64,000 bases of DNA from Vicinamibacterales bacterium (GCA_050246635.1 JBFWVR010000002.1:373938-437937), one strand, 5' to 3'. Shown: positions 16,832-61,467, numbered from the stretch's first letter. Notes: a model not told the origin generated them from the letters alone. Program-made: numbers and translations.

Positions 16832-19321
16832 TCACCGCGCCACGACCTCGTCGCCCGACGCGAGCTCGAGGTCCATCGGCGCGCCGGGCCGGGTGAAGAG
16901 GCCGTACCACACCCGGTACTCGCCTGCCTTGTTCCGGACCCGAACCCTGGACTGCAGGTGCAGGCCGTGCCCCTCGAGCGCGCCGGTGACGGCATCCGAG
17001 AGCTCGGTGCTGATCTCGATGAGCACCGAGCGAAGGCCGGGCGACGCCAGGACCCGCGCGGCACCGCCCAGCACGGCGAACTCCCCGCCGTCGACGTCGA
17101 GCTTGATGTGGTTCGGCAGCGGCAGCGCGGCCTGCTCGACCAGGTCGTCGAGCCGGAACGTGAGGACCGGTTGCGGGTACACCGTCGGCGCCTCGCCAGG
17201 CGCGCCGGCGCCAAGCGTGTGCCGGGCGCCGCCGGGCGCCAGGCCGATGAGGTTGAGCACACTCGCGGCGTTCGCGTCCGCGAGCGCGACGGGCAGCGGC
17301 GTGATCCGCGACGCCAGGTCGTTGAGCACCACGTTCGCGCAGAGGGCGTTCACGTTGGGATAACTCGGCTCGAACGCGACGACCCGCGCGCCGCCGGCGG
17401 GGTTGGCCGCCGCGACCAGCGAGTAGGCCCCGACGTTCGCCCCGATGTCGTAGAAGACCTCGTCGGGCCGGAACTGCCGGATCCAGGCGACCGTCCAGGG
17501 CTCCTTCGCGCAGGCGCGCAGGCGGACCCGCTCGGCCTTCGACGTGACCCGCATCCGGATCTCCGCATCCGGGAAGTCGAGCCGCTCGGCGTTGGCCCGC
17601 TGCAGCTCGAACCAGAGCTCGGATGGAATGCCGTCGACGATCCGCTCGAAGAACTGGACACGCTCCGCGTGCGACAGGGCCCCGTAGCTGCCCGCGAGCT
17701 CGGTCAGCCGCTCCTCGCGGCTGGCGGCCGCCTTGCGCGCCTCGCGGGCACGCCGCTCGTCCTCCTGCCGGGTCTTCTCGGCGAGCTTCTTCGCGATGCG
17801 CTCCTGCTTGGCCGCCTCCCGCCGCGCCCGGGCGGCATCGCGTTCCGCCTTCGCGCGCTCGGCCGCGTTCGCCTGCGCCTCGAGCTGCGCCGCCCGGCGC
17901 CGCAGCGCCGGCCGCACCGCCGTGGCCCAGGCCGGGGGCCGGGCGCCCGGCGCCCTGGGCCGGGCCGCCAGGCGCTCGAGCGCGTCGACCAGGCGAGGCG
18001 TGGCGGGCTCGCCGCGGCCGAAGGGCCTGACGAACGCATCCACGAACCGGCCACACCGATCGGCGCCAGCACCGGGCGAGGCGAGCTCGGCGTCGAGCTG
18101 CGACAGGTGCTCCTCGAACGACGCGGCCACCTGCACCAGGCCGCCGTTGGCCTGGCGCAGGTGCTCGAAGTGGATCGTGCCCTCCTGCGTGTCGCGGAAC
18201 TCCGGGGCGAGCAGCGTGAACACCGGCCGGCCGACAATGGCGCACTCGATCTCGGCTGTCGTGTTCACGCCCACCGCGGCGGCACAGTGGTAGATCGACT
18301 CGAAGTAGTCGCCGCGCGTCGCGGCGTCGACGGGCGCGGCGCCGGCTGCCGGGAAGATCGTCACGTCGCCGAGGCCCGAGCGGTCGAAGCCCTGCCACTG
18401 CTTCGCGTTCTGCGGGTGCGGCCGCACGAGCACGCCGGCGCGCCGGAGCCGCTCGGACGAGGAGGCCCGCAACTGCTCCACCCACCGGCGGACGAAGGCC
18501 GCCTCGTCGGGGGCGACGAACTTCGACGAACAGAGGTACAGCAGGTAGGGATCCGCCGACGCCAGGCCCGCGCGCGCGCAGAAGGCCTCGCGGGTACCCG
18601 CGGGCTGCCAGTCGAACCAGTGGTCGAAGGGCTGGGCGCCGGTGACGACCACGCGGTCCGCGGGAATGCCGTGGAGCCGGACGGCCTCGTCACGCATCGC
18701 GTCGTTCCAGACGGTCACCAGGTCCACCGGGTCGTGGATGAGTCCCTTGTTGGTCAGGTTGTCCCAGCTGGCGACGCACAGCACGGCCGGCACACCGGCC
18801 GCGCGAGCACTGCGCACGTAGTCGGCCTGCGGCGATCCCGGCTCCATCAGGGGCGTGACGAGCACGAGGTCGGGCCGGAGCTCGCGGACGTGCGCGTCGA
18901 TGGCCGGGTCGGTCGGGATGGCCCGGTCGGCGGCCTCGAGGATCGGCTTCAGCGCCGCACGCGCCAGCGGGCCGCGGCGCGTCCAGGCCAGGTAGCTGGC
19001 CGGGATCTCCCGCTCGACGCGCCGTCGCAGCTTCGGCGCCCGTGCGTACATCGGCGTGAGGTAGCGGAGGTAGTCGAGCACCAGCCGCACCTCCTGCCCG
19101 AGCATGCCCCACCCGTCCTCGCGCAGCGGCACGATGCCCTGCGAGAACGTCGGGTACTGCGCCGACAGCTGTCGCCCGATGTCGGTCGAGTCGAGCAGCC
19201 AGTGCGGCATGCGCGCCTGGAAGCCCACGTGCACGTGGTGCCCGCGGTCGCAGAGCAGGCGGATCGCGGACTCGAAGTTCCGGACGTAGCCGGAATGCCG
19301 CATGACGAAGAGGACTCTCAT
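16832..19321 (-). CDS. paralog family copy P6 fused via a long charged linker to a C-terminal FkbM-family methyltransferase domain
   Basis: 829-aa ORF. Motifs: ASWDNLTNKG, VWNDAMRDEAVRLHGIP, VLVRPHPQN, AVGVNTTAEIECAIVGRPV, TQEGTIHFEHLR. Linker nt ~17687-17914: AERAKAERDAARARREAAKQERIAKKLAEKTRQEDERRAREARKAAASREERL. FkbM part: VFYDIGANVGAYSL…VVAFEP…IKLDVDGGEFAVLGG. Confidence 0.85.
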   Translation of the reverse strand: MRVLFVMRHSGYVRNFESAIRLLCDRGHHVHVGFQARMPHWLLDSTDIGRQLSAQYPTFSQGIVPLREDGWGMLGQEVRLVLDYLRYLTPMYARAPKLRRRVEREIPASYLAWTRRGPLARAALKPILEAADRAIPTDPAIDAHVRELRPDLVLVTPLMEPGSPQADYVRSARAAGVPAVLCVASWDNLTNKGLIHDPVDLVTVWNDAMRDEAVRLHGIPADRVVVTGAQPFDHWFDWQPAGTREAFCARAGLASADPYLLYLCSSKFVAPDEAAFVRRWVEQLRASSSERLRRAGVLVRPHPQNAKQWQGFDRSGLGDVTIFPAAGAAPVDAATRGDYFESIYHCAAAVGVNTTAEIECAIVGRPVFTLLAPEFRDTQEGTIHFEHLRQANGGLVQVAASFEEHLSQLDAELASPGAGADRCGRFVDAFVRPFGRGEPATPRLVDALERLAARPRAPGARPPAWATAVRPALRRRAAQLEAQANAAERAKAERDAARARREAAKQERIAKKLAEKTRQEDERRAREARKAAASREERLTELAGSYGALSHAERVQFFERIVDGIPSELWFELQRANAERLDFPDAEIRMRVTSKAERVRLRACAKEPWTVAWIRQFRPDEVFYDIGANVGAYSLVAAANPAGGARVVAFEPSYPNVNALCANVVLNDLASRITPLPVALADANAASVLNLIGLAPGGARHTLGAGAPGEAPTVYPQPVLTFRLDDLVEQAALPLPNHIKLDVDGGEFAVLGGAARVLASPGLRSVLIEISTELSDAVTGALEGHGLHLQSRVRVRNKAGEYRVWYGLFTRPGAPMDLELASGDEVVAR

Positions 19322-19938
19322 CGCGCGGAGGCGGCGGGCAGCGGCCGTTCGGTGGCCACGTCGGTCCGCAGCAGCAGGAGCTTGCGCCGCGGCACGCCCT
19401 GGCGCACGAGCTCCTGGACGACCTTCTTGGGTTTGTGCAGGGCCGCCACGATGAGCGTGTCGAAGGCGACGCTCGCGTGGTCGGCAATCGGGACAACAGG
19501 CCGCCCGAAGAAGCGCTCACCGGCCTCGGCGTCGAAGACCACGACCGGCTCGAGGCCGAGCTCGTGGAGGGCCAGCATCGCGAGCTCGGCGGCCTCGCCG
19601 GTGCCGTAGATGGCCACGCGCTTCTGGCGGCCGACGCGGCCGTCGAGGTTCTGCCGCACGTGGCGGCGCGCGTCGCGGTAGAGATCCAGCGAGTACTGCA
19701 TGAACTCCATCGTCAGGCGCGCCTTGCGCGTGAGCCCGCGCGGCGTGATCAGGTAGATCAGGCGGTTCGGGCGGACCGAGACGCTCTTGATGTAGCCCTT
19801 GCGGATCAGGCGCTTCAGGTACAGGTTCGTCAGCCCGAGCGCGATGCCCAGGCGCGCCGCGAGCGTCCGCTGCGTCAGCGCGGAGTCCTGCTCGAGCGCG
19901 TCGAGCAGCTGGAGATCGCGTATCGACTCGAGATCCAT
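19318..19938 (-). CDS. winged-helix (MarR/EPS-associated type) transcriptional regulator with C-terminal Rossmann/CoA-binding-like domain
   Basis: C-terminal 206 aa of ORF 19318..20787, starting at ATG 19938 (MDLESIRDLQLLDALEQDSALTQRTLAARLGIALGLTNLYLKRLIRKGYI…). Followed by RVAIYGTGEAAELAMLALHELGLEPVVVFD. Its stop overlaps the downstream start (tcat 19318-19321). Confidence 0.75.
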   Translation of the reverse strand: MDLESIRDLQLLDALEQDSALTQRTLAARLGIALGLTNLYLKRLIRKGYIKSVSVRPNRLIYLITPRGLTRKARLTMEFMQYSLDLYRDARRHVRQNLDGRVGRQKRVAIYGTGEAAELAMLALHELGLEPVVVFDAEAGERFFGRPVVPIADHASVAFDTLIVAALHKPKKVVQELVRQGVPRRKLLLLRTDVATERPLPAASAR

Positions 19939-19952
19939 GCGGGCGCGCTCCC

Positions 19953-20846
19953 TCACAGCTGGTCGACCGACGAGCCTTCCATCCGGTCGAAGTAGATGAG
20001 GCCGCCGGTGAGCACGACGAGCATGACCCCCGTGCTGATGCCGAGGGCCATGGGGTTGAGCTCCGAGCCGGCGCCGATCGTGGCCCACTTGAAGGCCTCG
20101 ATGAAGCCGGCCATCGGGTTGAGGTAGACCAGGTGGCGGTAGTTCTCGGGCACCATCGACACCGGGTAGATCACCGGCGTCAGGTAGAACCAGAAGCGCA
20201 TGACGTAGCGGATGCCCATCTGCACGTCGCGGGCCCGCGTCTGCAGCACGCAGGTCCAGAGGCCGATCGAGATCGCGCAGGTGATCGCCAGCAGCAGGGC
20301 CACCGGGGCCATCAGCAGGCCGAGGTCCATCCGGAGGTACCAGCGGTGGTGGGCGATCAGGTAGAAGGTGATCCCCAGCAGGTACAGGGTGCAGTAGATG
20401 AAGAGGTAGACCATCGCCGGCCCCAGGCCGGACACCGGGATGACGAGGCGCGGGAAGTACACCTTCCGCACCAGGTCCCGGCTGCTGTTCATGCTCTTCG
20501 TGATGAAGATCACGCAGCGCTCGAACACGTTCCAGGTCACCGCGCCGGTGAGGAAGAACAGCAGGTAGGGCACCTCGCCGGAGTCGACCCCGACGACGCT
20601 GCCGAAGATCATGCCGCTCAGGAGGATCGGGAAGAGCGGGCGGGCGAAGAGCCAGAACTTGCCGAGCGCCGTGCCCTGGTACATCCGCTTCACGCTGCGC
20701 GACGCGAGGAACCAGGTGATGCGCCGGTACCGGATGAACTCCTTCAGGCGCGGGATCAACCCGGCGCGCTGCGGCTCGATGGTCCACGTGTCCTTGCGCC
20801 GGTCGCCGGCGCCGGCCAGCGGGAGGGTCACGGCTGTCTCAGGCAT
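19953..20846 (-). CDS. wzm: ABC-2 type polysaccharide exporter permease
   Basis: 297-aa ORF with multiple hydrophobic spans. Typical Wzm/TagG/KpsM features are present (…RRITWFLASRSVKRMYQGTALGKFWLFARPL…VYFPRLVIPVS…YLNPMAGFIEAFKW…). The start overlaps the wzt stop by 8 nt. Confidence 0.9.
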   Translation of the reverse strand: MPETAVTLPLAGAGDRRKDTWTIEPQRAGLIPRLKEFIRYRRITWFLASRSVKRMYQGTALGKFWLFARPLFPILLSGMIFGSVVGVDSGEVPYLLFFLTGAVTWNVFERCVIFITKSMNSSRDLVRKVYFPRLVIPVSGLGPAMVYLFIYCTLYLLGITFYLIAHHRWYLRMDLGLLMAPVALLLAITCAISIGLWTCVLQTRARDVQMGIRYVMRFWFYLTPVIYPVSMVPENYRHLVYLNPMAGFIEAFKWATIGAGSELNPMALGISTGVMLVVLTGGLIYFDRMEGSSVDQL

Positions 20847-22095
20847 TCTGAATCTCCGTCGGCGTCAGGAGCTTCCAGTCCAGGCGCGGGGCGAGCAGGG
20901 CCCCCTTGAGGAGCTTGCGCCGCCCCTCCACCTGTTCGGCGGTCGAGTAGCTCATGAACGACAGCGCCTTGTAGATGATGAGCGAGGACTCCTTGCCCTC
21001 GTGCTCGACGATGAGGAAGGCGTTCACGCTGTAGACGATCTCGGTGAGGAAGTGCGCCGGGATGCGGACCCAGGCCTCGTAGCCCCCGGCCTCGTCGATC
21101 GCGTGGGCCTCGGGCTCCATGCTGCGGAAGATCAGCGTCGACCGGTAGTTGACGTCGACCCCGGCCTTGATCGTGATGTTCGGCTTCCGCACGACGAAGC
21201 GGATGCGCACGAAGACGTCCTCCGATTGCGGCGCCGCGCCAATCTCCTTGCCGGCGGCGGTGACGAGGCGCGCGCCGATGAGCTCCGCGTAGCGGTTCTC
21301 ATGCCGGCCCTTCTCGCCGGCCGTGGCCTCGTTCCGCGCCCACGCCGCGTTCTGGTACTCCAGCACCACGTCGTCCGGCTCGCCGATCTTCACGACCTGC
21401 CCGGCGTTGATCCACATCACCTGGTCGCAGACGCGCGAGATGGCCTCCATGTCGTGCGAGACGAACAGGACCGTCAGGCCGTCGTGCGCGAGCTCCGCGA
21501 CGCGCTCGAGACAGCGCTCCTGGAACGCGAGATCACCCACGGCCAGGATCTCGTCCGCGAGCAGGATGTCGGGCTGCATGTTGATCGCGACCGAGAAGGC
21601 CAGCCGCAGGTACATGCCGCTCGAGAAGAACCGCAGCTCCGTCTCGACGAACTCCCCGATCTCCGCGAACTCGACGATCTTGTCGAAGTTCCGGTCGACG
21701 TCGGCCTTCGGGATCCCGTACAGCGCGGCGTTCAGGTAGACGTTCTCGCGCGCCGACGCGTCGGGGTTGAAGCCCGCGCCGAGCTCCAGCAGCGAGACCA
21801 CGCGGCCGACGCCGTGCACGCGTCCCTCGCTGGGCGGCGTCACGCGGGCGATGACCTTGAGCAGCGTGCTCTTGCCGGCCCCGTTGGCCCCGATGATGCC
21901 CAGCACGCGTCCCGGCTCCGCCCCGAAGGAGACGTTGCGCAGCGCCCAGAACTCCCGCCCCCCCGGCCCCGCCTCGCCCTTCAGGAAGCTGGTGACCGAT
22001 CGCCACGACAGCTTCGGCAGCAACGCGTTCGCGTTCTTGTCCGACTTGCTGATGTGGTAGCACTTGCCGAGATTCTCGACGGTCAGGTTGTTCAT
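20839..22095 (-). CDS. wzt: ABC exporter ATP-binding protein with C-terminal Wzt-type glycan-binding domain
   Basis: 418-aa ORF. Walker A GANGAGKST, signature FSSGMYLRLAF, Walker B ILLADEILAVGD, H-loop VSHD. An extra ~160-aa C-terminal beta-rich domain follows (…VFVRIRFVVRKPNITIKAGVDVNY…WVRIPAHFLTEIVYSVNAFLIV…). Confidence 0.9.
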   Translation of the reverse strand: MNNLTVENLGKCYHISKSDKNANALLPKLSWRSVTSFLKGEAGPGGREFWALRNVSFGAEPGRVLGIIGANGAGKSTLLKVIARVTPPSEGRVHGVGRVVSLLELGAGFNPDASARENVYLNAALYGIPKADVDRNFDKIVEFAEIGEFVETELRFFSSGMYLRLAFSVAINMQPDILLADEILAVGDLAFQERCLERVAELAHDGLTVLFVSHDMEAISRVCDQVMWINAGQVVKIGEPDDVVLEYQNAAWARNEATAGEKGRHENRYAELIGARLVTAAGKEIGAAPQSEDVFVRIRFVVRKPNITIKAGVDVNYRSTLIFRSMEPEAHAIDEAGGYEAWVRIPAHFLTEIVYSVNAFLIVEHEGKESSLIIYKALSFMSYSTAEQVEGRRKLLKGALLAPRLDWKLLTPTEIQNA

Positions 22096-22108: not shown

Positions 22109-25100
22109 TCACTTCACCCCGCGGCCGCGCACGAACGTGCCGACGTGGTACCGCGCCTGCCGGGGAATGCGGGTGATCTGCCTGGCGAGCCGGCGCAGGC
22201 GCTCGCCGCCCGTGCGGCCCGCGTGCCCGGCGCCCTTGCGCAGGTGATGGAGCGATTGCCGCGCCGACTTGCGCGCCGCCGCGAGCCGCGCGTCCCCGGC
22301 CATGCGCCCCCGCACCGCGACCCCCCCTGCCAGCAGGAGCACCACCGGCAGGAGCGCGAGGCCCGCGGCACGCGCCGCAAGGGAACGCGCCCGCCCACGG
22401 CCACGCAGGCTGATGAGGCGGGTGGCCAGCGCATCGACGTCGCCGCCCGGCACCGGCGGCCAGAGTGCCTCGCCGGCATACCCGGTGAGCCGCGCGACCT
22501 CGCCGGCCGGGTCGGCCAGGGCCTCGCGGAGTTCGTCCAAGAGCGCGCTCGCGGACGCGCCGTGGCGCAGCCCGCCGCCGTTGGCACGGAGCAGCCACGT
22601 GAGCGGCTTCGCCACCGGGGCGGCAGGACTCGCGGGCGGCAACGCGAGAATCGCGGGCCGGCCGGCGGCCACCGCGCCGAGCAGCGCCGTGACGTGTCCG
22701 CCGACGACGGCCCTCGCGCCAGCCACCGATGCGTAGAGGAGCGCGTCGTCGCCCCGGCCGTCGGCCGGGTAGCTGGTGGGCCACAGCACCACGCCGTCGC
22801 GGTCCGCGATACCCGAGGCGTCCCACTCGGCGGTGCGCCCGGGCGCCGGCCGGATCACCACCGCCAGATCCCGCAGCCGGCTGTCGCCGCTCGTGCGCAG
22901 CGCGTCAACGAAGCTGTCGGCCAGCCGGACCTCCTGTCGAGTCGCGGCAAACGTGCCAGGTGACGCCACGTACAGGACGTAGTCACGTTCCGCATCGAGC
23001 CCGCACTGGGTTCGCAGGTCCGCGACGGCCTCCGGGGACACCCCGCGGAACGATTCCAGCGCGGTGGCGCCACTGACAACAACGGCGGCCTCGTCGACCA
23101 GTCCCGCCGCCGCGAGCGCGTGCCGATCGGCGGGGCTCCAGACCGACACCAGCGTGGGTCGGCCAAGCAGGAGGCCGTGATTGACGCCGTGCTCCCCACC
23201 GGATGCCAGGGCCGCTGCCGGCACGCCAAGCTGTCGGGCAGCCTTGAGGAGATCGATCTGGCCGGCGCTCGCCTCGGCCGCCGTCACCAGGTCCATCGCG
23301 GGCAGGACGAGCAACACGTCCGGCCGCTCGGTGTCCATCAACCCGCGGGCGCCAGCCGGGACGGGGACCGCGTGCTCGAGCAGGCCGAGCCGCCGCACGA
23401 GCCGCAACGCGCCATCGACGCCGGCAGCAGCGGTGTCCTGCAAGCCCACCGGCAGCAGGTGCCGGCGCACGCGGGTGTTCCAGTCGCCGTCCGCCACCGG
23501 CTCCTCCACGGCCGGCACGACCGGCACCAGCGTGGCAAGCCCTCCGAGCGCGGCACCGACCTCACCCCAGACACCGGTCGCGGCCGGGACGGCGCCGCGG
23601 ATCCGCGTGCCGTCCGCGGCGATCTCGAGTTGCTCGGACGGCCGACCGCGCCGCTCGCGCCCCGGCGTGTAGGTCACCGCGAGCCCGCACCCGTGTTCCC
23701 GGAGCGCGGCCAGCAGCGGCGCGTGGTGTGCGAGCGCCGCGGCTGACGGCGTGGCGACGAGCACGCGTGGAGACGCAGCCGCCCCCATCGTACTTGCGGG
23801 CCGCCTCCCCGTTGGCCACACCGCAGAGAGGATGGCCAGCGCCGCCCGTGCCACCCGATCTTCCCTCGGCGCGGGTCGCGCCGCGGGGTATCGGGCGACT
23901 TCCTGAATCAGCCGCTTGGCGGCGGCCAGCTCCGGTGCGGGCACCGGGCCGTGCGGACGGACGTACGCCCTCGCGGACCGAAGCGCCAAGGTCGACACGT
24001 CACCGCGGAACACGGCGGCCAGGTGCCGCATCGACTCGCCAATGGTGGTGGCCATGAGCGGCCAGCCGCGTCCCCGGCCGTGCAGGGCCTCGAACCGGGT
24101 GAGCTCCTCCCCCGTGTCGCTGCCGGGCAGGGCCAGGGCAATCACCGGCACCCGCACGGCCGCGCCGTCCAGCGCCGCGGCCAACCCGGTCGTGACGATG
24201 GCGTCCGCATGCTGGCAGGCTGCGGCCCACCGGGCGTCGCCGTGCCGGGCGCCTCGGGCATCCATCACGGCAACCGGCCCGAGCGCGGGCGGCAAGGCCA
24301 TCGACGCCGCGTCCGGGATCAGCACGGCGGCGCCGGCAACGTGCGCGTCTTCGTGCGTGCGGAGAACCCGCAGCCACTCCGCGACCCACGCCGTATTGGC
24401 GGCCACTGCGTCCTCCACCGACAGGACGATGAGCCTGGAATCGACGGGCAACCCCAGCGCGGCGAGCACCTCCGCGCGCGGGGGCGGATCCGCGAAGAGG
24501 TGGTTGAAGTCGGGCGCGCCGAGCACACTCACGCGTTGCGGAGGCATGCCGTGCAGGTCGATGGCTTCCCGCCGCTGTTCGCGGTTCCACACGCTGATCG
24601 CGTCGGGCCGTTCGTGCAGGTGCGCGCCGCAGGCGAGGTCGTCCCACCGGGCGGTGAGCGCCAGCGTGCTGGCACCGCGACGGTGGGCGGCGCGCGCATA
24701 ATCGACCTGCGCGCTTCCGTGCTCGAAGGGCGAGGCAAGCACCACGACGTCGGGCCGGTGCCGGTCGAGCAGCTCTGTCACGGCCGGGTCGACGGGCAAC
24801 GCGCGTTCCAGGCGGGTCAAGGTGCGGAGAGCCAGGTCGCGCGCCAGTGACAGTCCCCGGGCATCGACCGCCCGATCACGGAGTCGCAGCTGGTCGATCG
24901 CGGACCGCACCGCCGCGGCGGCCCGGGTCCTGCGTGGCGAGGCCGGCGGTGGCGCGTACCCGAGCGAGATGCGAGACGTGGTCCGCGCGAGGGCGCCAAT
25001 CGCGGTGAGCTCCTCATTGGCCGCGACCCGCTCGGCGACGACGTGCACGCGGTCGCCGCGGGCCGCGAGGCCGCGCAGCAGCCCCAGGTGCGGCGCCGCC

Positions 25101-25141
25101 GCCCCCAGGCTCGACACCACGAATACGACGCGCTCCGGCAT
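22109..25141 (-). CDS. motif-degenerate tandem double-domain member of the paralog family (D1) with predicted C-terminal membrane anchor
   Basis: 1010-aa ORF. Homology to the family is visible (RPDVVVLASPFEHGSAQVDYARAAHRRG…ARWDDLACGAHLHERPDAISVWNREQRREAIDLHGMPPQRVSVLGAPDF) but SWDNLT-KG, RPHP and QEGT-HF are not conserved. C-terminal hydrophobic stretch AAGLALLPVVLLLAGGVAV is followed by a basic tail. Confidence 0.7.
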   Translation of the reverse strand: MPERVVFVVSSLGAAAPHLGLLRGLAARGDRVHVVAERVAANEELTAIGALARTTSRISLGYAPPPASPRRTRAAAAVRSAIDQLRLRDRAVDARGLSLARDLALRTLTRLERALPVDPAVTELLDRHRPDVVVLASPFEHGSAQVDYARAAHRRGASTLALTARWDDLACGAHLHERPDAISVWNREQRREAIDLHGMPPQRVSVLGAPDFNHLFADPPPRAEVLAALGLPVDSRLIVLSVEDAVAANTAWVAEWLRVLRTHEDAHVAGAAVLIPDAASMALPPALGPVAVMDARGARHGDARWAAACQHADAIVTTGLAAALDGAAVRVPVIALALPGSDTGEELTRFEALHGRGRGWPLMATTIGESMRHLAAVFRGDVSTLALRSARAYVRPHGPVPAPELAAAKRLIQEVARYPAARPAPREDRVARAALAILSAVWPTGRRPASTMGAAASPRVLVATPSAAALAHHAPLLAALREHGCGLAVTYTPGRERRGRPSEQLEIAADGTRIRGAVPAATGVWGEVGAALGGLATLVPVVPAVEEPVADGDWNTRVRRHLLPVGLQDTAAAGVDGALRLVRRLGLLEHAVPVPAGARGLMDTERPDVLLVLPAMDLVTAAEASAGQIDLLKAARQLGVPAAALASGGEHGVNHGLLLGRPTLVSVWSPADRHALAAAGLVDEAAVVVSGATALESFRGVSPEAVADLRTQCGLDAERDYVLYVASPGTFAATRQEVRLADSFVDALRTSGDSRLRDLAVVIRPAPGRTAEWDASGIADRDGVVLWPTSYPADGRGDDALLYASVAGARAVVGGHVTALLGAVAAGRPAILALPPASPAAPVAKPLTWLLRANGGGLRHGASASALLDELREALADPAGEVARLTGYAGEALWPPVPGGDVDALATRLISLRGRGRARSLAARAAGLALLPVVLLLAGGVAVRGRMAGDARLAAARKSARQSLHHLRKGAGHAGRTGGERLRRLARQITRIPRQARYHVGTFVRGRGVK

Positions 25142-25168: not shown

Positions 25169-25645
25169 TCAGGCCAGCGGCTCGTTCGGTGACGCCTGTG
25201 GCCCGTGCTTGATGGCCCGCTTGCGTGCCTTGGCCTCGGCGCGCTCGGCCTCGGCCCGGGCACGCGCCGCGGCGTCGGCCGCCTCGATGCGCGAGCGGAA
25301 ACGGCGGATGACGCGGCCGGCGCACGCCACGCCGGCGCGCGACTCGAGGGGACGCGCCCGGCCGATCACCTGCATCCGCGCCAGGCCTTCGGCCACCGCC
25401 GCGACCTGCTCCGCCGTGAGCGCGGGTGTCGCGAGCGCCGGCACCTCGATCACCCGCACCGACGGCAGACCGGTGGCCGCCAGCGCTGACACCCGCTCGG
25501 TGGCCCCGGGCACCAGCACCCAGTCGGCTCCGCGCGTCGGCGTCGCGGTTACGCGGAGCACGCCGGCCGCGAGGCCGGCCGCGGCGGCCGCGGCCTCGAG
25601 CTGGCCGGCCACCGCCGGCGCTGCGCCGATGACGAGGATGCGCAC
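25169..25645 (-). CDS. small hypothetical protein (short Rossmann-like N-terminus plus A/R/E-rich tail), partner of D1
   Basis: Part of ORF 25169..25693. GTG start at 25645 (VRILVIGAAPAVAGQ…), 4 nt after the upstream stop. Third codon positions are very G+C-rich in this frame. Tail: EAADAAARARAEAERAEAKARKRAIKHG. Confidence 0.55.
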   Translation of the reverse strand: MRILVIGAAPAVAGQLEAAAAAAGLAAGVLRVTATPTRGADWVLVPGATERVSALAATGLPSVRVIEVPALATPALTAEQVAAVAEGLARMQVIGRARPLESRAGVACAGRVIRRFRSRIEAADAAARARAEAERAEAKARKRAIKHGPQASPNEPLA

Positions 25646-25649
25646 CGAC

Positions 25650-26831
25650 TCAGACCGCCTGCACGGCGGCGTCGAAGAACGCCGCCTCGACACCCATCGC
25701 GGCGCATGTGCGCCGGATCTCGTCCAGGTAGTTGGTGTTCATCACCAGCACCGCGAGCCGCCCCTCGGCGGTCCGCAGTGCGTCGGGCGCGTCGATCCGG
25801 CGCCCCGAAAGCGGGACGAAGCACCCCTGCTTGTTCGTGTTGACGTCCACGGCCAGGTCGAGCAGCCCACCGGCGTCGCGATCGACCAGCAGCGAGAAGA
25901 TCACGCCCTTGGTGGCCATGCCCCAGACGACCGTCCGCATCCCGGACGCCTTGAGGGCCTCGAGCCGGGCCCGCGTCTCGGCGATCCGCTGGCGTTCGCC
26001 GGCCGCGTAGGCCTGAAGGGCGCTGACGAACGCCGCGGCCGCCTCGTCGGGCGCAGGCGTCGCGGGCTCGGCAGCGACCGCCTCCATCCACCGGTACTGG
26101 TTGCCGAAGGCCACGCGCGTTGCCGTCGGCGCGAAACCGGCGCGGGCCAGGACCGAGCCGAGGCTGGCCGGGCTGAAGTAGTTGCAGTGCTCGTAGCAGA
26201 AGTCCCAGAACGTCTGCTCGTGGACGATCCACCCCGCATCGGGCACCTCGACGAAGAGGGGCACGCCGGCGCGGTCGCCGAGCGCGTCGCGGAGGTCGCG
26301 GACGAAGGGCACCGGCTGCGGGATGTGCTCCAGCACGTGACGGCAGACGAAGAGGGACGGCACGTCCTCGAGCAGGTCGTCGTGGAAGACGCCCTTCACC
26401 AGCCGGACGCGGCCATCGGCCTCGGTCGAGTCACCCGGCAGCGCCGGGTCGACCCCGAGGCCCCGGCACTCGGGCCAGACCCGCGCCGCGGCCTTGAGGA
26501 ACGTGCCGTTGCCGCAGCCGATGTCCACGAGGTAGCCGCGCGCCAGGTCGTACTTCTCGCCGAGATAGCGGGCAATCTCCTCGTAGTACGCCGCCATCAC
26601 CGCCGAGGGCACCGCGTTGTCGTACCCGGCGTCGTAGTCGAGGCGCGCGGGATCGAACGTGCCGTTCCACGCGAAGCTGCAGTGGGGACAGACCGACAGG
26701 GTGAGCACCCCCCGCTTCGCGCCGAGCGCCGCCTCACGCGTCCGGTACACGTAGTTCTGCATCGTCGGGAGCGGATCCCGGGTGACCGTGACCACCGCAT
26801 CGGTGGCGCCGCAGACCGGACAGGCCGTCAT
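25650..26831 (-). CDS. NDP-hexose C-methyltransferase family protein (TylCIII-like, divergent paralog)
   Basis: C-terminal 393 aa of ORF 25650..27752. ATG 26831 is in an ATGA overlap (tcat 26828-26831). Contains an N-terminal Cys4 (CPVCG…CPHCS), LVDIGCGNGTFL, FVCRHVLEHIPQP and a C-terminal Rossmann-like module (VVWGMATKGVIFSLL…NTNKQGCFVP). Confidence 0.75.
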   Translation of the reverse strand: MTACPVCGATDAVVTVTRDPLPTMQNYVYRTREAALGAKRGVLTLSVCPHCSFAWNGTFDPARLDYDAGYDNAVPSAVMAAYYEEIARYLGEKYDLARGYLVDIGCGNGTFLKAAARVWPECRGLGVDPALPGDSTEADGRVRLVKGVFHDDLLEDVPSLFVCRHVLEHIPQPVPFVRDLRDALGDRAGVPLFVEVPDAGWIVHEQTFWDFCYEHCNYFSPASLGSVLARAGFAPTATRVAFGNQYRWMEAVAAEPATPAPDEAAAAFVSALQAYAAGERQRIAETRARLEALKASGMRTVVWGMATKGVIFSLLVDRDAGGLLDLAVDVNTNKQGCFVPLSGRRIDAPDALRTAEGRLAVLVMNTNYLDEIRRTCAAMGVEAAFFDAAVQAV

Positions 26832-27820
26832 GCCCTCCCCCATCGCTCGAACCATGCCTGGTACCAGGTGACCGTCTCGCGCAGGCCGGCCTCGAAGGAC
26901 GTCCGTGGCGTCCAGTCCAGGAGCGTGCGCGCCTTGTCGGCGGCGAGCCACTGCTCGCGGATCTCGGCGCGCGCCGTGCCCCGGATGTCGGGCACGAGGT
27001 CGGCGCGTCCCATCACGTCCTGGATCGCCGCGATGACCTCGAGCACCGTGCGCCGCGCGTCGCCACTGAAGTTGACGGCATGGCCGGCGCGGCCGCCGGC
27101 GGCGGCCTCGGCGAGCGCGAGGTAGGCGGAGGCCGCGTCCTTCACGAAGAGGTAATCGCGGACGAACGTGCCGTCGCTGCGCACGATCGGCCGTTCGCCG
27201 CGGGCGAGCGAGCGAATGGTGCCCGGCACGATGCGGCTCCAGTTGAGGTCGCCGCCGCCGTAGATGTTGCCGCAGCGCGCGACGTTCACCGGCAAGCCGT
27301 ATGTCTCGTGGTAACTCTGCGCGAGCAGGTCCGTGCACGCCTTCGAGACGTCGTACGGGTGCCGCGCGCGCAGCGGCGTGTCCTCGGTGTACGGCAGGAC
27401 GTCGGCCGCACCGTAGGCCTTGTCGCTCGACGCGACGGCCACCGCCGTCACCACCTCGCGATGGGCCCGGCAGGCCTCGAGCACGTGGTAGGTGCCGCGG
27501 ATGTTCGCCTCGAAGGTCGTGAGCGGCGATCGCACGGCGGGGCCGACGAGCGCCTGCGCGCCCAGGTGGATCACCGTGTCCACCTCCCACATCCCGATCG
27601 CGCGCTCCACCGCACCGTAGTCCTCGAGCGCGCCGTAGACGATCTTGATCCGGGACACGTCGCCGCCCGAGACGAGCTCCGACTGGGGATCCAGGTCCAC
27701 GACCAGCGCGACGACCGTCGCGCCGCGCTCGAGCAGCTGCTTCACCACCCACGAGCCGACCACGCCACTCGCGCCCGTCACGAGCACGCGGCGCGCGCGC
27801 CAGAAACCGTCGGCCGCCAT
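26828..27820 (-). CDS. rfbG: CDP-glucose 4,6-dehydratase
   Basis: Part of ORF 26828..27895. Start at ATG 27820 (MAADGFWRARRVLVTGASGVVGSW…). SDR signature present: TGASG, SSDKAYG…YDVSKAC. FWRxxRVLVTG is the typical RfbG/DdhB opening. Sits next to the cytidylyltransferase pathway genes. Confidence 0.85.
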   Translation of the reverse strand: MAADGFWRARRVLVTGASGVVGSWVVKQLLERGATVVALVVDLDPQSELVSGGDVSRIKIVYGALEDYGAVERAIGMWEVDTVIHLGAQALVGPAVRSPLTTFEANIRGTYHVLEACRAHREVVTAVAVASSDKAYGAADVLPYTEDTPLRARHPYDVSKACTDLLAQSYHETYGLPVNVARCGNIYGGGDLNWSRIVPGTIRSLARGERPIVRSDGTFVRDYLFVKDAASAYLALAEAAAGGRAGHAVNFSGDARRTVLEVIAAIQDVMGRADLVPDIRGTARAEIREQWLAADKARTLLDWTPRTSFEAGLRETVTWYQAWFERWGRA

Positions 27821-28587
27821 CACTTCACCCGCCGCAGCCAGGCCTGCGGCCAGTGCGTCACGTTCTCGCGGAGCTCGCTCTCGTTGAAGGGCCACGCGGG
27901 CTGCTCGAGCACGAACTCCGGGCGCGTGGCCAGGAAGTCGTGCACTGCCGAGATCGGGTTGTCCTCACGCCATTCCGGCGTGCCGCGCGGCGCGTCGGCC
28001 ACCTCCTGCATCACGCCGTCGGTCGCGACGATGTAGGAGCCCGGCGTCACCATGTCCCAGTACGCCTCGAGCTCCGCCCGCACGTGCGCCCGGGAGTGGT
28101 TCGAGTCGAGCAGCACGAGCACGGTCTCCCCGGGCGCGACGAGTCCCTTCACCCGGGACACGAGCGCCGGATCGACCGAGCTGCCCTCCACCAGCGTGAT
28201 GTACTCGAAGAGCGGGTGCGCCTCGAGGGCCTGGCGGTTGTGGGGCCGGATCTCGATGTCGATGCCGACGACGCGGCCGCGGCCCATCGCCTTGCAGAGG
28301 CTGGCGTAGTAGATCAGCGACCCGCCGTGCGCGACGCCGGTCTCGACGATCACGTCGGGGGCCACCGCGTGGATGACCTCCTGCAGCCGGACCATGTCGT
28401 CCGGCAGCTGGATGACGGGACGGCCCATCCAGCTGAACGTGTAGGTGTACTTCTGGTTCCAGCCCACCTTCAGCCAGAGCCGGGAGAGGATCTCGAAGCC
28501 CTCGCGCGAGTAGAGCGGGATCTCGGTCGTGCCGTCGCCGCCCGGCACCGCGATCGTCTGTGCCGCCGTGTCGATTGTGTAGGTCAT
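27820..28587 (-). CDS. CmcI ('cephalosporin hydroxylase') family methyltransferase, rhamnosyl-O-methyltransferase-like
   Basis: Part of ORF 27820..28620. ATG 28587 is in an ATGA overlap (tcat 28584-28587). Contains WMGRPVIQLPDDMVRLQEVIHAVAPDVIVETGVAHGGSLIYYA…VLVLLDSNHSRAHV, characteristic of the CmcI family. Confidence 0.8.
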   Translation of the reverse strand: MTYTIDTAAQTIAVPGGDGTTEIPLYSREGFEILSRLWLKVGWNQKYTYTFSWMGRPVIQLPDDMVRLQEVIHAVAPDVIVETGVAHGGSLIYYASLCKAMGRGRVVGIDIEIRPHNRQALEAHPLFEYITLVEGSSVDPALVSRVKGLVAPGETVLVLLDSNHSRAHVRAELEAYWDMVTPGSYIVATDGVMQEVADAPRGTPEWREDNPISAVHDFLATRPEFVLEQPAWPFNESELRENVTHWPQAWLRRVK

Positions 28588-29504
28588 GCCCCTGCCGTTC
28601 CCAGTCGTCGTTCCCACCACGCCGCGGTGTCCTGCAGCCCCGCGCGCAGGCCGAACCGCGGCGTGAAGCCCACGTCCCCGTGGAGGCGCGCGACGTCGCC
28701 GACCACCAACGGGTATCGATCCTCGCCGGCGTCCGGCACCGGCTCGAGCCGCAGCGGGCGGCCGAGCGCCTCGGCGACGTGCGCCGCCAGCGTGGCCAGG
28801 CTCACCGCCTCGCCGGACGCGATGTTCACCGGGCCGTCGACGGGCGCGTCGACGAGCGCCGCGAACGCCCCCGCCACGTCGTCGACGTGCAGGTAGTCAC
28901 GCACCTGCGCCGGGTGGCGCAGGCGCATCGGCGCCCCCGTCGCGACCGCCCGCACGATGGCCGGGACGAGCCGCTCCGGCGCCTCCTCGGGCCCGTGCAG
29001 GAAGAACACGCGGCCCCAGGCGAACCCGACCCCCTCCTGCGCCGCCAGCCGCCCGACGATGCCGGCGAGCCCGTGTTTGCTCGCCGCGTACAGCGTGGCG
29101 GGCTCGAGGGGCGTGACCGCCTCCGAACAGTAGCCGTAGCGCCAGTCGTACTCGGCACAGGTCCCCGCGCCGACCACCCGCCGCCCCCCTTCGCGCACGA
29201 AGCGGTCGACGAGCGCCAGGCTGGACTGCACCCAGGGCAGGTTCTCGCGGGACGTGACGTAGGCCCCTGGCGTGACGTCCCACGCGAGATGCAGCAGCAC
29301 CTCGGGGCGCACGCGCTCGACGAGCGCGGCCGCCGCGCGGTGGTCGTGCAGGTCGACGGCGTGGACGTGGAGGTGTGGCGACGCCACCGGTAACGGCCGG
29401 CGCGTGACGGCGTGCACCTCATGGCCACGCGCGATCAGCGGCTCCAGCGTGCGGCGGCCGATGAACCCGCCGGCGCCCGTCACGAGGACCCGCGACGGCG
29501 TCAC
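28584..29504 (-). CDS. NAD(P)-dependent epimerase/dehydratase-family SDR, probable NDP-4-keto-sugar reductase
   Basis: C-terminal 306 aa of ORF 28584..30173. GTG 29504 is in a GTGA overlap (tcac 29501-29504). Contains VLVTGAGGFIGRR and YAASKHG (YxxxK). Confidence 0.8.
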   Translation of the reverse strand: MTPSRVLVTGAGGFIGRRTLEPLIARGHEVHAVTRRPLPVASPHLHVHAVDLHDHRAAAALVERVRPEVLLHLAWDVTPGAYVTSRENLPWVQSSLALVDRFVREGGRRVVGAGTCAEYDWRYGYCSEAVTPLEPATLYAASKHGLAGIVGRLAAQEGVGFAWGRVFFLHGPEEAPERLVPAIVRAVATGAPMRLRHPAQVRDYLHVDDVAGAFAALVDAPVDGPVNIASGEAVSLATLAAHVAEALGRPLRLEPVPDAGEDRYPLVVGDVARLHGDVGFTPRFGLRAGLQDTAAWWERRLGTAGA

Positions 29505-30031
29505 GGGCGGAGCGGGCCCCAGCCGCGGTCCTGATCCGAGAGGCCGGTGGGTGCGAGCGGCCACGCGATGGCCAGCGTGGGATCGTCCCAGCGGATGCCG
29601 TCGCCGGCCTCGCGGGCATAGTACGCGCCGATGTGATAGAGCACGGTCGTCTCGTCGGCAAGCGTCTGGAACCCGTGCGCCACTCCTTCCGGCATGAAGA
29701 CCAGGCGGCGGTTGGCGGCGGTCAGCTCGAAGCCTTCCCAGCGGCCGAAGGTCGGCGACCCGGGACGGATGTCGGCGACGACGTCGAAGAAGGCGCCGCT
29801 GACGCAGGTGACCAGCTTGGCATCGGCATGCGGGGCACGCTGGAAGTGGAGGCCGCGCAGGGTGCCGCGGCGCGCGTTGTGCGACAGGGCCGTGCGCACG
29901 AACCCGCCGGTCCAGCCGGCGGCGGCGAGCGCACGCGCCTGGAACAGCTCCGCGAACCAGCCCCGATCGTCGGCGGCCACCGGCGGATCGACGAGGAACA
30001 CGCCGGCCAGGCGCGTCTCGTGCAGCGTCAC
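29501..30031 (-). CDS. NDP-4-keto-6-deoxyhexose 3,5-epimerase (RmlC/RfbC cupin family)
   Basis: C-terminal 176 aa of ORF 29501..31099. GTG 30031 is in a GTGA overlap (tcac 30028-30031). Contains DDRGWFAELF…RGLHFQ…KLVTCVSGAFFDVVADIR…, the RmlC signature. Confidence 0.85.
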   Translation of the reverse strand: MTLHETRLAGVFLVDPPVAADDRGWFAELFQARALAAAGWTGGFVRTALSHNARRGTLRGLHFQRAPHADAKLVTCVSGAFFDVVADIRPGSPTFGRWEGFELTAANRRLVFMPEGVAHGFQTLADETTVLYHIGAYYAREAGDGIRWDDPTLAIAWPLAPTGLSDQDRGWGPLRP

Positions 30032-31260
30032 AGCACGCGGACCTTCGGGATCGCCACGAGGAACCGCCCGCCGGCCTCGCGATACGCGGCCTCCTGCCGG
30101 AGCACCTCGTCGGCGAGGTTCCAGACGAAGAGCAGCACGTAATCCGGCCGCCGCTCCGCGATGGCCGAAGCATCGACGATGGGGATGCCGCATCCCGGCA
30201 TCCGACGGCCCTGCTTGTGCGGGTTGCGATCGGCGACGAAGTCGACGAGCTGGTCGTCCACGCCGCAGTAGTTCAGGAGGATCGTGGCCTTGGCCGCCGC
30301 GCCGTACCCGGCAATGGTCGCGCCCCCCGCCTTCAACTCGGCCAGCGTGCGCGTCAGGTCCGCCCGCACGCCTTCGACCGCGCGGCGGAACGGCTCGTAG
30401 TAGGCGGCCTCCTGCATGCCGAGCGCACGCTCCTCGTCCAGCAGGGCCTGCGCGGAGGCGCCATGGGCCGTGCCGAACCCGATCGTCAGCCGCAGCGAGC
30501 CGCCGTGGATGGGCACCCGGACGACGTCCTCCAGGACGAGGCCGTGCCGCTCCACGAGCGCCGCCACCGCCGTCACGGAGAAGTACGACAGGTGCTCGTG
30601 GTAGATCGTGTCGAACTCGACCTTCTCCACCATGTCGCGCACGTAGGGCGCCTCGATGACGATCACGCCGCCCGGCTCGAGCATCGCCCGGGCGCCCGCG
30701 ATGAACCCGTTCGGGTCCGGCACGTGCGCGAAGACGTTCAGCCCGAGGATCACGTCGGCTCGACGGCCCTCGCCGGCGAGTCGCGTCCCGAGCTCGCGGC
30801 CGAAGAACGCATTGAGGGTGGGGATGCCGCGTTCGCGTTCCGCGACCGCCGCGATGTTGCCGGCCGGCTCGATGCCGAGCACCGGCACGCCCTGCTGCTT
30901 GAAGTACTGGAGCAGGTAGCCGTCGTTGCTCGCGATCTCGACGACCAGGCTGTCGGCGCCCAGGCCGCGGCCCTGCACGAGGCTGGTGGCCAGTGCCTCG
31001 GCGTGGCGCAGCATCGACCCGGAGTACGACGAGAAGTACAGGTACTCCGAGAACATGTCCTCCGGCGGGACCACGTGGCGGAGCTGCACGAGCGAACACG
31101 CCGGGCAGAGCGCGACGTCGAGCGGGAACCGCGGCTCTTCGCGGGACGCGTCGGCCGCGGGGTACGCGTTGGCCAGCGGCAGCGTCCCGAGCGAGACGAT
31201 CCCGGTGAGCGGGCCCGCGTCGCAGGCGAGGCAGCGCTCGCGCGCCAGCGGCGCGCTCAC
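30028..31260 (-). CDS. NDP-hexose C-methyltransferase (TylCIII-like)
   Basis: Part of ORF 30028..31275. Preferred start is GTG 31260 (GTGA overlap, tcac 31257-31260); GTG 31275 is an alternative. Contains CLACD…CPACSLVQL zinc motif, VVEIASNDGYLLQYF, LNVFAHVPDP and a C-terminal module IAGYGAAAKATILLNY…DRNPHKQGRRMPG. Confidence 0.85.
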   Translation of the reverse strand: MSAPLARERCLACDAGPLTGIVSLGTLPLANAYPAADASREEPRFPLDVALCPACSLVQLRHVVPPEDMFSEYLYFSSYSGSMLRHAEALATSLVQGRGLGADSLVVEIASNDGYLLQYFKQQGVPVLGIEPAGNIAAVAERERGIPTLNAFFGRELGTRLAGEGRRADVILGLNVFAHVPDPNGFIAGARAMLEPGGVIVIEAPYVRDMVEKVEFDTIYHEHLSYFSVTAVAALVERHGLVLEDVVRVPIHGGSLRLTIGFGTAHGASAQALLDEERALGMQEAAYYEPFRRAVEGVRADLTRTLAELKAGGATIAGYGAAAKATILLNYCGVDDQLVDFVADRNPHKQGRRMPGCGIPIVDASAIAERRPDYVLLFVWNLADEVLRQEAAYREAGGRFLVAIPKVRVL

Positions 31261-34758: not shown

Positions 34759-34862
34759 CTGGTCGCGTACAGGCGTCCGCCCTCTCAGTCCCATCGGGGC
34801 TGCGGCGGGTCATGGCGGGCTGGGTGTGGCCAGGCGGCAGGCCGCCGCGGGGCGGCGACCCT

Positions 34863-61257: not shown

Positions 61258-61467
61258 CGAACCTCCGTGCCCACGCCGGGCCCCGCCGTCCCGGGCCGCG
61301 CGAGGCTGGCCTGCCGGGCAGGGGTGGCCTATACTTGGGGCCGTCCCTGGGCCCCGTGGGGCCCGTTCAACCGAGTCAACGCGACGTACGACGGTGTCAC
61401 CCCGCGGCTCCGCCACCGCCGCCACCCGGCGGCCGGTCGGCACCGCGCACACGCCACTAGGTTACCA

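Follow-up and report, generated by a model that had tools for sequence, protein, structure and literature searches.

Tandem GT-B proteins without the signature motifs of their orphan family form a conserved, probably non-catalytic lineage in a large Vicinamibacterales glycan cluster

The stretch of DNA analysed here (the window) comprises 64,000 nucleotides (nt) of a Vicinamibacterales bacterium (GCA_050246635.1 JBFWVR010000002.1:373938-437937) and encodes three proteins, D1, D2 and D3, that are related to a family of GT-B-type (glycosyltransferase fold B) proteins encoded around them but have lost the signature motifs of that family. Their sequences indicate that they are probable pseudo-glycosyltransferases with a non-catalytic role in a glycan pathway that depends on an ATP-binding cassette (ABC) transporter. 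The fuller reading, in which D1 to D3 represent a conserved tandem pseudo-GT-B subfamily that would act as a non-catalytic binding or organising subunit of a Wzm/Wzt pathway, is one to which we give a probability of about one half. The three genes and their domains are located as follows.

22109-25141, minus strand: D1, 1010 amino acids (aa), tandem degenerate GT-B protein (AB7O67_04320, 'hypothetical protein')
23777-25141, minus strand: a-domain of D1, aa 1-455
22397-23776, minus strand: b-domain of D1, aa 456 to about 915
38664-41756, minus strand: D2, 1030 aa, tandem degenerate GT-B protein (AB7O67_04395, 'hypothetical protein')
40347-41756, minus strand: a-domain of D2, aa 1-470
38937-40346, minus strand: b-domain of D2, aa 471 to about 940
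46391-48898, minus strand: D3, 835 aa, D2-like
48164-48898, minus strand: remnant of the a-domain of D3 (N-terminal Rossmann half), aa 1 to about 245, followed by a linker
46529-48007, minus strand: full b-domain of D3, aa 298 to about 790

A first-pass annotation of the window had proposed the kinship of these proteins with their canonical neighbours, and it holds. D1 to D3 match the canonical copies with BLASTP E values of 1e-20 to 1e-65, their domains score 143-153 bits against a hidden Markov model built from 10 canonical domains, and D1 is colinear with the canonical tandem C3 across 946 aa at 30% identity. The three open reading frames (ORFs) have a GC content at third codon positions (GC3) of 0.87-0.89, which is usual for real genes in DNA of this composition (72% GC, with coding nearly all on the minus strand). 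The blocks described as retained, RPDVVVL...GSAQVDYARAA and VWNREQRREA, are present, and so is the mostly double-domain architecture: D1 and D2 consist of two full domains and D3 of half an a-domain and a full b-domain. The D3 b-domain is 46% identical to D2, and no closest pair of D-like proteins exceeds 46% identity. What D3 has lost, in frame, is the C-terminal Rossmann (donor-side) half of its a-domain, and it resembles a duplicate of D2 with an in-frame deletion of about 200 aa covering exactly that half-domain, the ...HGP... linker being kept. At profile level the degenerate proteins stand apart from named families. With the Pfam model Glyco_transf_4 (PF13439), D1 reaches 23.6 bits versus a cut-off of 28.5, and D2 and D3 have no match; with TIGR03568 / Epimerase_2, D1 reaches 10.5 bits versus a cut-off of 235.9, so that similarity to epimerases is at fold level only. 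Pfam detected no methyltransferase or kinase domain in the D proteins.

The yardstick for motif loss is the canonical family, which is represented in the window by nine proteins with ten domains of about 480 aa each.

939-2684: C1
2691-4925: C2, fused to an FkbM methyltransferase domain
5951-9175, minus strand: C3, canonical tandem with two intact domains, the nearest canonical counterpart of D1
10944-13304: C4
14191-17262: C5
16832-19321: C6, fused to an FkbM methyltransferase domain
33286-34794: C7
43726-45213: C8
48895-50997, minus strand: C9, canonical single-domain copy with a long Ala/Arg/Glu tail

Canonical domains are characterised by the motifs SWDNLTxKG, VWNxxQRxEA, RPHP, VG(L/V)NT(S/T)AxxEAAxxGRPV, Q(E)GTxHF and FVRPxG. 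In an alignment of 57 single-domain members, the invariant residues (C1 numbering) are W188, D189, K194, W207, N208, E214, H219, G230, D235, R303, P304, G351, N353, H384, F430, R432, P433 and G435. The replacements quoted in the first-pass annotation were all recovered from the degenerate copies: ARWDDLACG, TSWADGAASG, SADLLDAGV and AAGCLDSGV for the SWDNLTxKG motif, and SASPGD, RPAPGK and RPAPSA for RPHP. The invariance of these motifs in all nine canonical copies had been slightly overstated, however, given SWDHLT in the C3 a-domain, SWDNLSSKA in C1, KAHP and QSGT in C2, QVGT in C4, and QG(R/F)TGHF in C7-C9. Furthermore, a fourth motif, VG(L/V)NT(S/T)AxxEAAxxGRPV, proved to be lost in addition to those previously listed.

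The pattern of loss is consistent across the D-like domains of the window and of at least 11 other motif-less representatives (P0124, P0128, P0151, P0135, P0242, P0133, P0143, P0144, P0150, P0156 and P0237), which were drawn from the best 150 of 1,751 profile matches. Four signature motifs (SWDNLTxKG, RPHP, GxNT(S/T)A and QxGTxHF) are all missing. When loss was scored at positions at least 90% conserved across 166 canonical domains, K194, H305, N353/T354, Q379, T382 and H384 were found to be lost from D-like domains (C1 numbering), and E359 was additionally lost from b-domains and kept in a-domains. Other positions persist: a-domains mostly keep W188-D189 (as RWDDL) and VWNxxQRR, b-domains keep D189, part of VWN and the R-P-x-P skeleton (IRPAPG), and D-like domains keep the structural residues G230, D235, R288, R303, P304, P306, W312 and RPxG. 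The signature GxNT(S/T)AxxEAAxxGRPV and the His of RPHP are more than 90% conserved in canonical domains; of these, a-domains keep the Glu only and b-domains nothing. We assume, from what is known of GT1, GT28 and GT4 enzymes, that this signature serves the donor site. Its first part presumably corresponds to the phosphate-loop, ribose-Glu and strand element of GT1/GT28-type donor sites, and we take the His of RPHP to be the counterpart of the donor-phosphate His of 'HP-motif' GT-B enzymes. The joint loss of this His, of the N-T loop, of the helix Glu of b-domains, of the Lys of SWDNLTxKG and of QxGTxHF consequently makes it most likely that D1 to D3 are non-catalytic.

The 1,751 matches are representatives at 50% identity, obtained at E<1e-3 in an exhaustive profile search with three b-domains, and most of those outside the D-like set are canonical proteins with one, two or three domains. 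A distance tree, in which branches are long, separates the D-like domains from the 166 canonical ones and groups their a-domains in one clade and their b-domains in another. Since the a and b clades are separate, the a+b tandem is ancestral to D1 to D3 and their relatives, and the degenerate tandem is, as judged from these alignments, an old maintained lineage and not a product of local decay. The lineage has conserved blocks of its own, LPALDLxTA, IRPAPG, DFxGLGxVVLCPxxYExSG, RWDDL and VRPHGPxLxPGF. Other searches added little to this distribution. Word-indexed searches with D2 and with a 14-sequence D-like alignment returned the query proteins alone, which we take to mean that their Ala/Arg-rich composition swamped the word index; scans with the b-domain alignment returned one locus from genomes (L002) and one from metagenomes (L003), both with canonical members; and sequence searches of the PDB found nothing relevant.

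Structure prediction indicates that the degenerate domains of D1 still fold. The AlphaFold2 (AF2) model of D1 has a mean predicted local distance difference test score (pLDDT) of 82.3, with most 10-residue blocks at 85-97, and a predicted template modelling (TM) score of 0.62; both domains are folded, and each half alternates beta and alpha elements. The model of canonical C1, built on 57 sequences, has a pLDDT of 91.9. Foldseek searches with the AF2 models gave E values of 1e-9 to 1e-12 and target-normalised TM-scores of 0.6-0.7 to UDP-GlcNAc 2-epimerases, MshA, WaaG and OleD, and the C1 model was placed in the GT-B superfamily close to no particular family (UDP-GlcNAc 2-epimerases, MshA and WaaG at about 0.6-0.65). 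As modelled, D1 and C1 both have the two Rossmann-like alpha/beta domains with a cleft that define the GT-B fold. The top match of D1 was 8qoy, a multi-enzyme capsule polymerase, with a TM-score of only 0.25. The reading of D1 to D3 as pseudo-enzymes, put forward in the first-pass annotation, thus gains from several observations: residues more than 90% conserved in the family are lost, the same losses recur in other metagenomes, and both domains of D1 have a confidently predicted GT-B fold.

The same fold could however house a different activity. According to this explanation, D1 to D3 would be active enzymes with a re-composed site or another chemistry, using a sugar phosphate or other activated donor or working as hydrolases, phosphorylases or epimerase-like enzymes, and the motif changes would reflect new specificity. 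The conservation of lineage motifs (IRPAPG, xxDxGVNP, RWDDL, AD-VVxxD, WP and RPHGP) is what such enzymes would show, as is the retention of the SWDN Asp and of R303/P304/P306/W312 in b-domains and of E359 in a-domains. The confident fold prediction also favours it, and the GT-B superfamily holds non-transferases, for example the UDP-GlcNAc 2-epimerases that are among the top structural matches. However, no member has the phosphate-binding His, the N-T loop or the Lys in either domain, D-like proteins differ from one another at the former motif positions, and D3 tolerates the loss of a whole C-terminal half-domain. Moreover, residues conserved in D-like but not in canonical domains are mostly hydrophobic or structural. 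The few polar ones are D190, R213, D347, W395-P396 and H434 in the a-domain, an acidic gain included, and the Arg of EFR, a Tyr and D341E in the b-domain; comparison of the D-like and canonical alignments revealed no evident replacement catalytic set and no coherent new polar cluster among them. The first-pass annotation had named an intact, differently composed active site as the observation that would speak against pseudo-enzymes, and the D-like alignment contains no new conserved polar constellation of that kind. On balance, active enzymes seem to us an unlikely explanation.

The second element of the earlier proposal was a membrane anchor. The two Arg-flanked hydrophobic strings on which it was based, AAGLALLPVVLLLAGGVAV and LPMLGATVLGLGAVALA, are present, clear in D1 and borderline in D2, and each is followed by a basic tail.

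22313-22369, minus strand: D1 hydrophobic segment AAGLALLPVVLLLAGGVAV, aa 925-943, Arg on both flanks
22112-22312, minus strand: D1 basic tail, aa 944-1010, 19 Arg/Lys versus 2 Asp/Glu, end ...RQARYHVGTFVRGRGVK
38862-38912, minus strand: D2 hydrophobic segment, aa 949-965 (hydropathy peak over aa 947-965)
38667-38861, minus strand: D2 basic tail, aa 966-1030

The D1 segment has a Kyte-Doolittle value of 2.41 and a summed value of 0.5 on the Hessa scale, a clearly transmembrane-like hydropathy; the D2 segment reaches 1.83 on the former scale, and hydropathy detected no such segment in D3, which also lacks the RYxxG tail. No canonical copy in the window attains the values of D1 and D2 at its C-terminus, and C3 carries a weaker version of the hydrophobic and basic tail. 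Elsewhere, however, six fully canonical proteins (P0170, P0155, P0126, P0215, P0206 and the L003 ORF) have the same hydrophobic segment right after the domain, followed by a long Arg/Lys-rich tail. Four of them (P0170, P0155, P0126 and the L003 ORF) share the terminal motif R(Y/F)xxG(M/T/V)(L/F)xRR, with counterparts in D1 (RYHVGTFVRGR), D2 (RYNLGVLRRG) and P0124 (RYYLGTLRR). Motif loss and anchor therefore do not form the diagnostic pair that had been proposed, since fully canonical members share the tail and D3 has no anchor, and the argument that loss plus anchor marks a scaffold loses its force. These comparisons suggest that the D-like subfamily probably derives from a C3-like canonical tandem already bearing a membrane-associating tail.

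A simple bitopic transmembrane helix seems less likely for the anchor. The tails of 65-67 aa carry a net charge of +17 in D1 and +19 in D2, and the flank N-terminal to the D1 segment carries +6; because both flanks are strongly basic, translocating either side would break the positive-inside rule. Such flanks suit a monotopic or interfacial anchor better, and they point to a monotopic or re-entrant segment with electrostatic binding at the cytoplasmic face. Note that AF2 gave only low-confidence helices for the segment and tail region of D1.

A lead to the function of the D-like proteins comes from their gene neighbourhood, which includes a small gene directly upstream of D1 and D2 and the exporter genes that follow D1.

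25169-25693, minus strand: small partner upstream of D1, no Pfam match, alpha/beta domain of about 110 aa and an Ala/Arg/Glu-rich tail
41760-42593, minus strand: small partner upstream of D2, separated from D2 by a 3-nt gap, paralogue of 25169-25693
20839-22095, minus strand: wzt-type ABC ATPase, 418 aa with a C-terminal extension (Pfam ABC_tran), start 13 nt downstream of the D1 stop
19953-20846, minus strand: wzm-type ABC-2 permease (Pfam ABC2_membrane)

Homologues of the small partner were found at four loci elsewhere (L004, 770-1396; L005, 5050-5565; L006, 1038-1694; L008, 1552-2073), and its alpha/beta region has invariant G, P, W, R, RV, IG, R and S positions. The true start of the gene at 25169-25693 is probably internal, near VRILVIGA. 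In all six cases with upstream DNA (D1, D2, P0124 in L004, P0128 in L005, P0242 in L006 and P0143 in L008), the small partner lies directly upstream of the D-like gene. The window contains just two copies, beside D1 and D2, and none was seen next to its canonical tandems. Judged from this linkage, the product is likely a physical partner of D-like proteins. D3 lacks such a gene; the D3 start and the stop of canonical C9 share 4 nt, an overlap by which the two are probably translationally coupled.

Genes on the other side of the D-like gene are also conserved. A TylF or FkbM/TylF methyltransferase gene directly follows it in L004, L005, L006, L008 and the P0133 contig, and the block of methyltransferase, small partner, D-like protein and TylF recurs in L005 and L008. 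These two loci share with the window the order of sugar-nucleotide genes, MT23/MT14 methyltransferase, small partner and D-like gene, and L005 is syntenic for the epimerase/dehydratase, the CmcI-type O-methyltransferase and the MT23/MT14 genes just upstream of the small partner and D-like gene. L008 has an ABC ATPase 3 kb downstream of its D-like gene, and the order of D-like gene, ABC ATPase, ABC-2 permease and canonical member in L007 is that of D1, wzt, wzm and C6 in the window, where a helix-turn-helix (HTH) gene is intercalated before C6. On this sequence evidence the context points less to the tethering of canonical paralogs, as first supposed, and more to a module composed of the small partner, sugar O-methyltransferases and Wzm/Wzt.

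These observations can be combined into a working model. A D-like protein would sit at the cytoplasmic face of the membrane by means of a monotopic hydrophobic segment and a polybasic tail, would pair with the small conserved partner protein, and with it would form a non-catalytic binding or organising subunit of the Wzm/Wzt assembly line. Among the motifs that the a-domains retain, WD(D)L and VWNxxQRR belong to the N-domain (acceptor side), and conserved acidic residues have been added, a combination that would suit binding of the growing glycan or of its lipid-linked end; the absence from D3 of the donor-side half of the a-domain suggests that such binding is what was retained. The linkage to the partner gene, to O-methyltransferases and to the exporter would place this role at the termination/export end of the pathway, and the most plausible step would be one linking chain modification or termination by O-methyltransferases to export.

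Several considerations weigh against this model of a non-catalytic subunit and keep our estimate for it from being higher. The assignment of catalytic residues rests on conservation and on analogy with GT-B donor-binding motifs. The b-domains keep the SWDN Asp and R-P-x-P, and the a-domains keep the helix Glu, so that residual or altered ligand binding or catalysis is possible. The anchor is, by its occurrence in canonical sequences, an inherited family trait that is not linked to motif loss and has nothing specific to the D copies. For the more particular idea of a dedicated tether of canonical paralogs, it matters that the short contigs L004-L006 showed no canonical copy beside the D-like gene. 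Finally, the distribution of the lineage was read from the best-scoring subset of matches mentioned above.

A more specific version of the scaffold idea would make the small partner, the tandem pseudo-glycosyltransferase, the TylF/FkbM O-methyltransferases and Wzt together a device for chain-end recognition, termination and export coupling, by analogy with WbdD, in which the dead glycosyltransferase domains would read the non-reducing end of the polymer. In the ABC-transporter-dependent O-antigen pathway of Escherichia coli O9a, the chain terminator and scaffold WbdD, which is not itself the polymerase, recruits the polymerase WbdA to the membrane via its C-terminal non-catalytic region and couples termination, by methylation, to Wzm/Wzt export, so making chains exportable (PMC3482155). 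The position of D1 directly upstream of wzt-wzm and the same order in L007, the ABC ATPase of L008, the methyltransferase genes that follow the D-like gene in five contigs and the charged helical tails of the small partners all agree with such a device. However, D2 and D3 are not beside the transporter, and there is no sequence relationship to WbdD, which has active kinase/methyltransferase domains and a coiled-coil ruler; D-like proteins have another fold and neither domain, and the functional analogy suggested by genes adjoining methyltransferases and wzt-wzm is tentative. We regard this version as improbable, and the still narrower proposal that the D-like protein and its small partner are a chain-end reader coupling O-methyl capping to Wzm/Wzt export in Vicinamibacterales as quite doubtful. 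The massive motif loss, the long tree branches and, for D3, the internal deletion, the missing anchor and small partner and the lack of any close homologue except D2 would fit functionless, decaying duplicates of canonical tandems, an explanation that can practically be dismissed for D1 and D2 and has little probability for D3 given intact ORFs of 835-1030 aa with coding-type GC3, the same losses in many other metagenomes with conserved synteny and partner gene, the confident AF2 fold, and the retained structural residues G230, D235, R288, R303, P304, P306 and W312.

Non-catalytic GT-B proteins are already known as a kind, and the preferred reading of D1 to D3 as non-catalytic subunits can be set beside them. 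Carbohydrates are bound without catalysis by GtfB, Asp1 and the N-terminal GT-A/GT-B domains of Gly, which have a glycosyltransferase fold with an acidic and not a basic cleft, and Asp1 also binds anionic lipids (bioRxiv 10.1101/219105). As in these proteins, the GT-B fold of the D-like proteins is kept, predicted donor-binding residues are lost and putatively active paralogous glycosyltransferases work alongside; the loss of Lys and His and the gain of conserved Asp residues in D-like a-domains recall the acidic clefts. In contrast, a D-like protein joins two seemingly dead domains in tandem and adds a hydrophobic and polybasic tail, and while the streptococcal system acts on a protein adhesin (serine-rich-repeat), the D-like substrate, if there is any, would be a lipid-linked polysaccharide in a Wzm/Wzt pathway. 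When PDB sequences were searched with phmmer, D1 matched no GtfA, GtfB or Asp1 chain at E values up to 10, none was among the top 50 Foldseek matches, and D-like proteins show no sign of the extended beta-sheet domain of GtfA, GtfB and Asp1; the resemblance is analogy only.

Closer to home, canonical tandems such as C3, P0126 and P0134 have the same two-domain architecture as D-like proteins. C3 and P0126 share with them the hydrophobic segment and Arg-rich tail, and P0134 has the segment but no Arg-rich tail. Both domains of these tandems, however, keep SWDNLTxKG, RPHP, GxNT(S/T)AxxEAA and Q(E)GTxHF, of which D-like proteins have none. TagF-like proteins and capsule polymerases, such as Cps3D of Actinobacillus pleuropneumoniae (PDB 8qoy), are likewise GT-B-type proteins of several domains that take part in polymer synthesis. 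This group typically has an 'HP' His in contact with the donor phosphate. D-like proteins lack this His, and the likeness is further limited by the low TM-score to 8qoy and by the Glyphos_transf (PF04464) model, with which just canonical C5 and C9 have a match (13 bits versus a cut-off of 22.1) and D proteins none.

A literature search on Vicinamibacter polysaccharide genetics returned nothing relevant, and we found no earlier description of acidobacterial tandems in which two seemingly dead domains of an orphan GT-B family come with their own small partner gene and recur beside Wzm/Wzt and methyltransferase genes. Non-catalytic proteins with a glycosyltransferase fold are known from few systems, for example GtfB, Asp1 and Gly in the glycosylation of Gram-positive adhesins, and the membrane organisation of the many transferases of ABC-transporter-dependent pathways is understood for few enterobacterial O-antigens only. 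The D-like subfamily is conserved in abundant, little-studied soil Acidobacteria, inside very large clusters of an orphan GT-B family. If its members are non-catalytic organisers or glycan binders, they provide a new example of pseudo-enzymes in polysaccharide assembly and a way into the function of the orphan family; if they are active instead, they define a new GT-B chemistry; and if they were chain-end readers, pseudo-glycosyltransferases would represent a novel means of controlling chain length and ending chains in the ABC-transporter-dependent synthesis of polysaccharides. Either way the annotation is corrected: the motifs were truly lost, and long ago, and the membrane tail is a trait of the family.

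The canonical SWDNLTxKG/RPHP family is itself an orphan GT-B family without a Pfam model or PDB family match. No canonical copy scored above threshold with Pfam, which gave faint Glyphos_transf and GT4 matches only, the former spanning the RPHP region, and a PDB sequence search with C1 found no relative. Relatives of C6 number more than 3,000, most of them named solely after the fused FkbM domain, and L002 (1820-18412), from another Acidobacteria metagenome-assembled genome (MAG), holds seven canonical copies in 18 kb. The C-terminal ends of several canonical copies are long Arg/Lys/Glu/Ala helices of high charge (C1 aa 466-576, C9 aa about 560-700, C5 aa about 640-720), which in the C1 model take the form of one continuous helix of about 85 residues with a pLDDT of 86-94. 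These helices recall the coiled-coil spacers of chain-length-regulating enzymes. Charged helical tails are present in the small partners and in canonical C1 and C9, and not in D1 to D3.

Exact protein matches assign the window to a Vicinamibacterales MAG (Acidobacteriota), and Pfam scans of all GC3-supported genes reveal one very large glycan cluster. In addition to the Wzm/Wzt ABC-2 exporter genes (19953-22095), the cluster contains four GT2 genes and one GT61 gene (Pfam), a GDP-mannose 4,6-dehydratase, several NDP-sugar (nucleoside diphosphate sugar) epimerases/reductases, a nucleotidyltransferase, an NDP-hexose C-methyltransferase, a CmcI-type rhamnosyl O-methyltransferase, many FkbM/TylF/class-I methyltransferases and a DegT aminotransferase. 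The sugar-nucleotide genes lie in two groups.

26828-32150 and 56635-57630: nucleotidyltransferase, NDP-hexose C-methyltransferase (Methyltransf_13/23/14), two epimerase/dehydratases, CmcI-type rhamnosyl O-methyltransferase and GDP-mannose 4,6-dehydratase

These genes imply C- and O-methylated 6-deoxyhexoses in the polymer, and from its family content we infer that the cluster specifies an ABC-transporter-dependent pathway for a heavily methylated deoxy-sugar polymer.

The intercalated gene between wzm and C6 encodes a winged-helix (HTH_24/MarR-like) regulator on the minus strand; the ORF listed at 19318-20787 is mostly shadow, the real gene being about 190-200 aa. In the P0003 contig, too, the C6 orthologue has an HTH_24 gene just upstream, and in the P0007 contig one is located about 8.6 kb upstream; neither of these two contexts has an identified D1 orthologue directly upstream. 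The gene at 50769-53021 (minus strand), upstream of C9 and D3, encodes a protein of 750 aa that contains about nine hydrophobic stretches and weakly matches the C-terminal end of YfhO (25 bits, below threshold); it is possibly a membrane protein of GT-C-like or polymer-modifying type. The rightmost part of the window (60100-63965) encodes the DegT aminotransferase together with a radical-SAM protein and a UbiA prenyltransferase. Genes of the last two types border the orthologous cluster of the closest relative (P0003 contig) as well, which hints at a linked lipid-carrier or lipid-anchor pathway.

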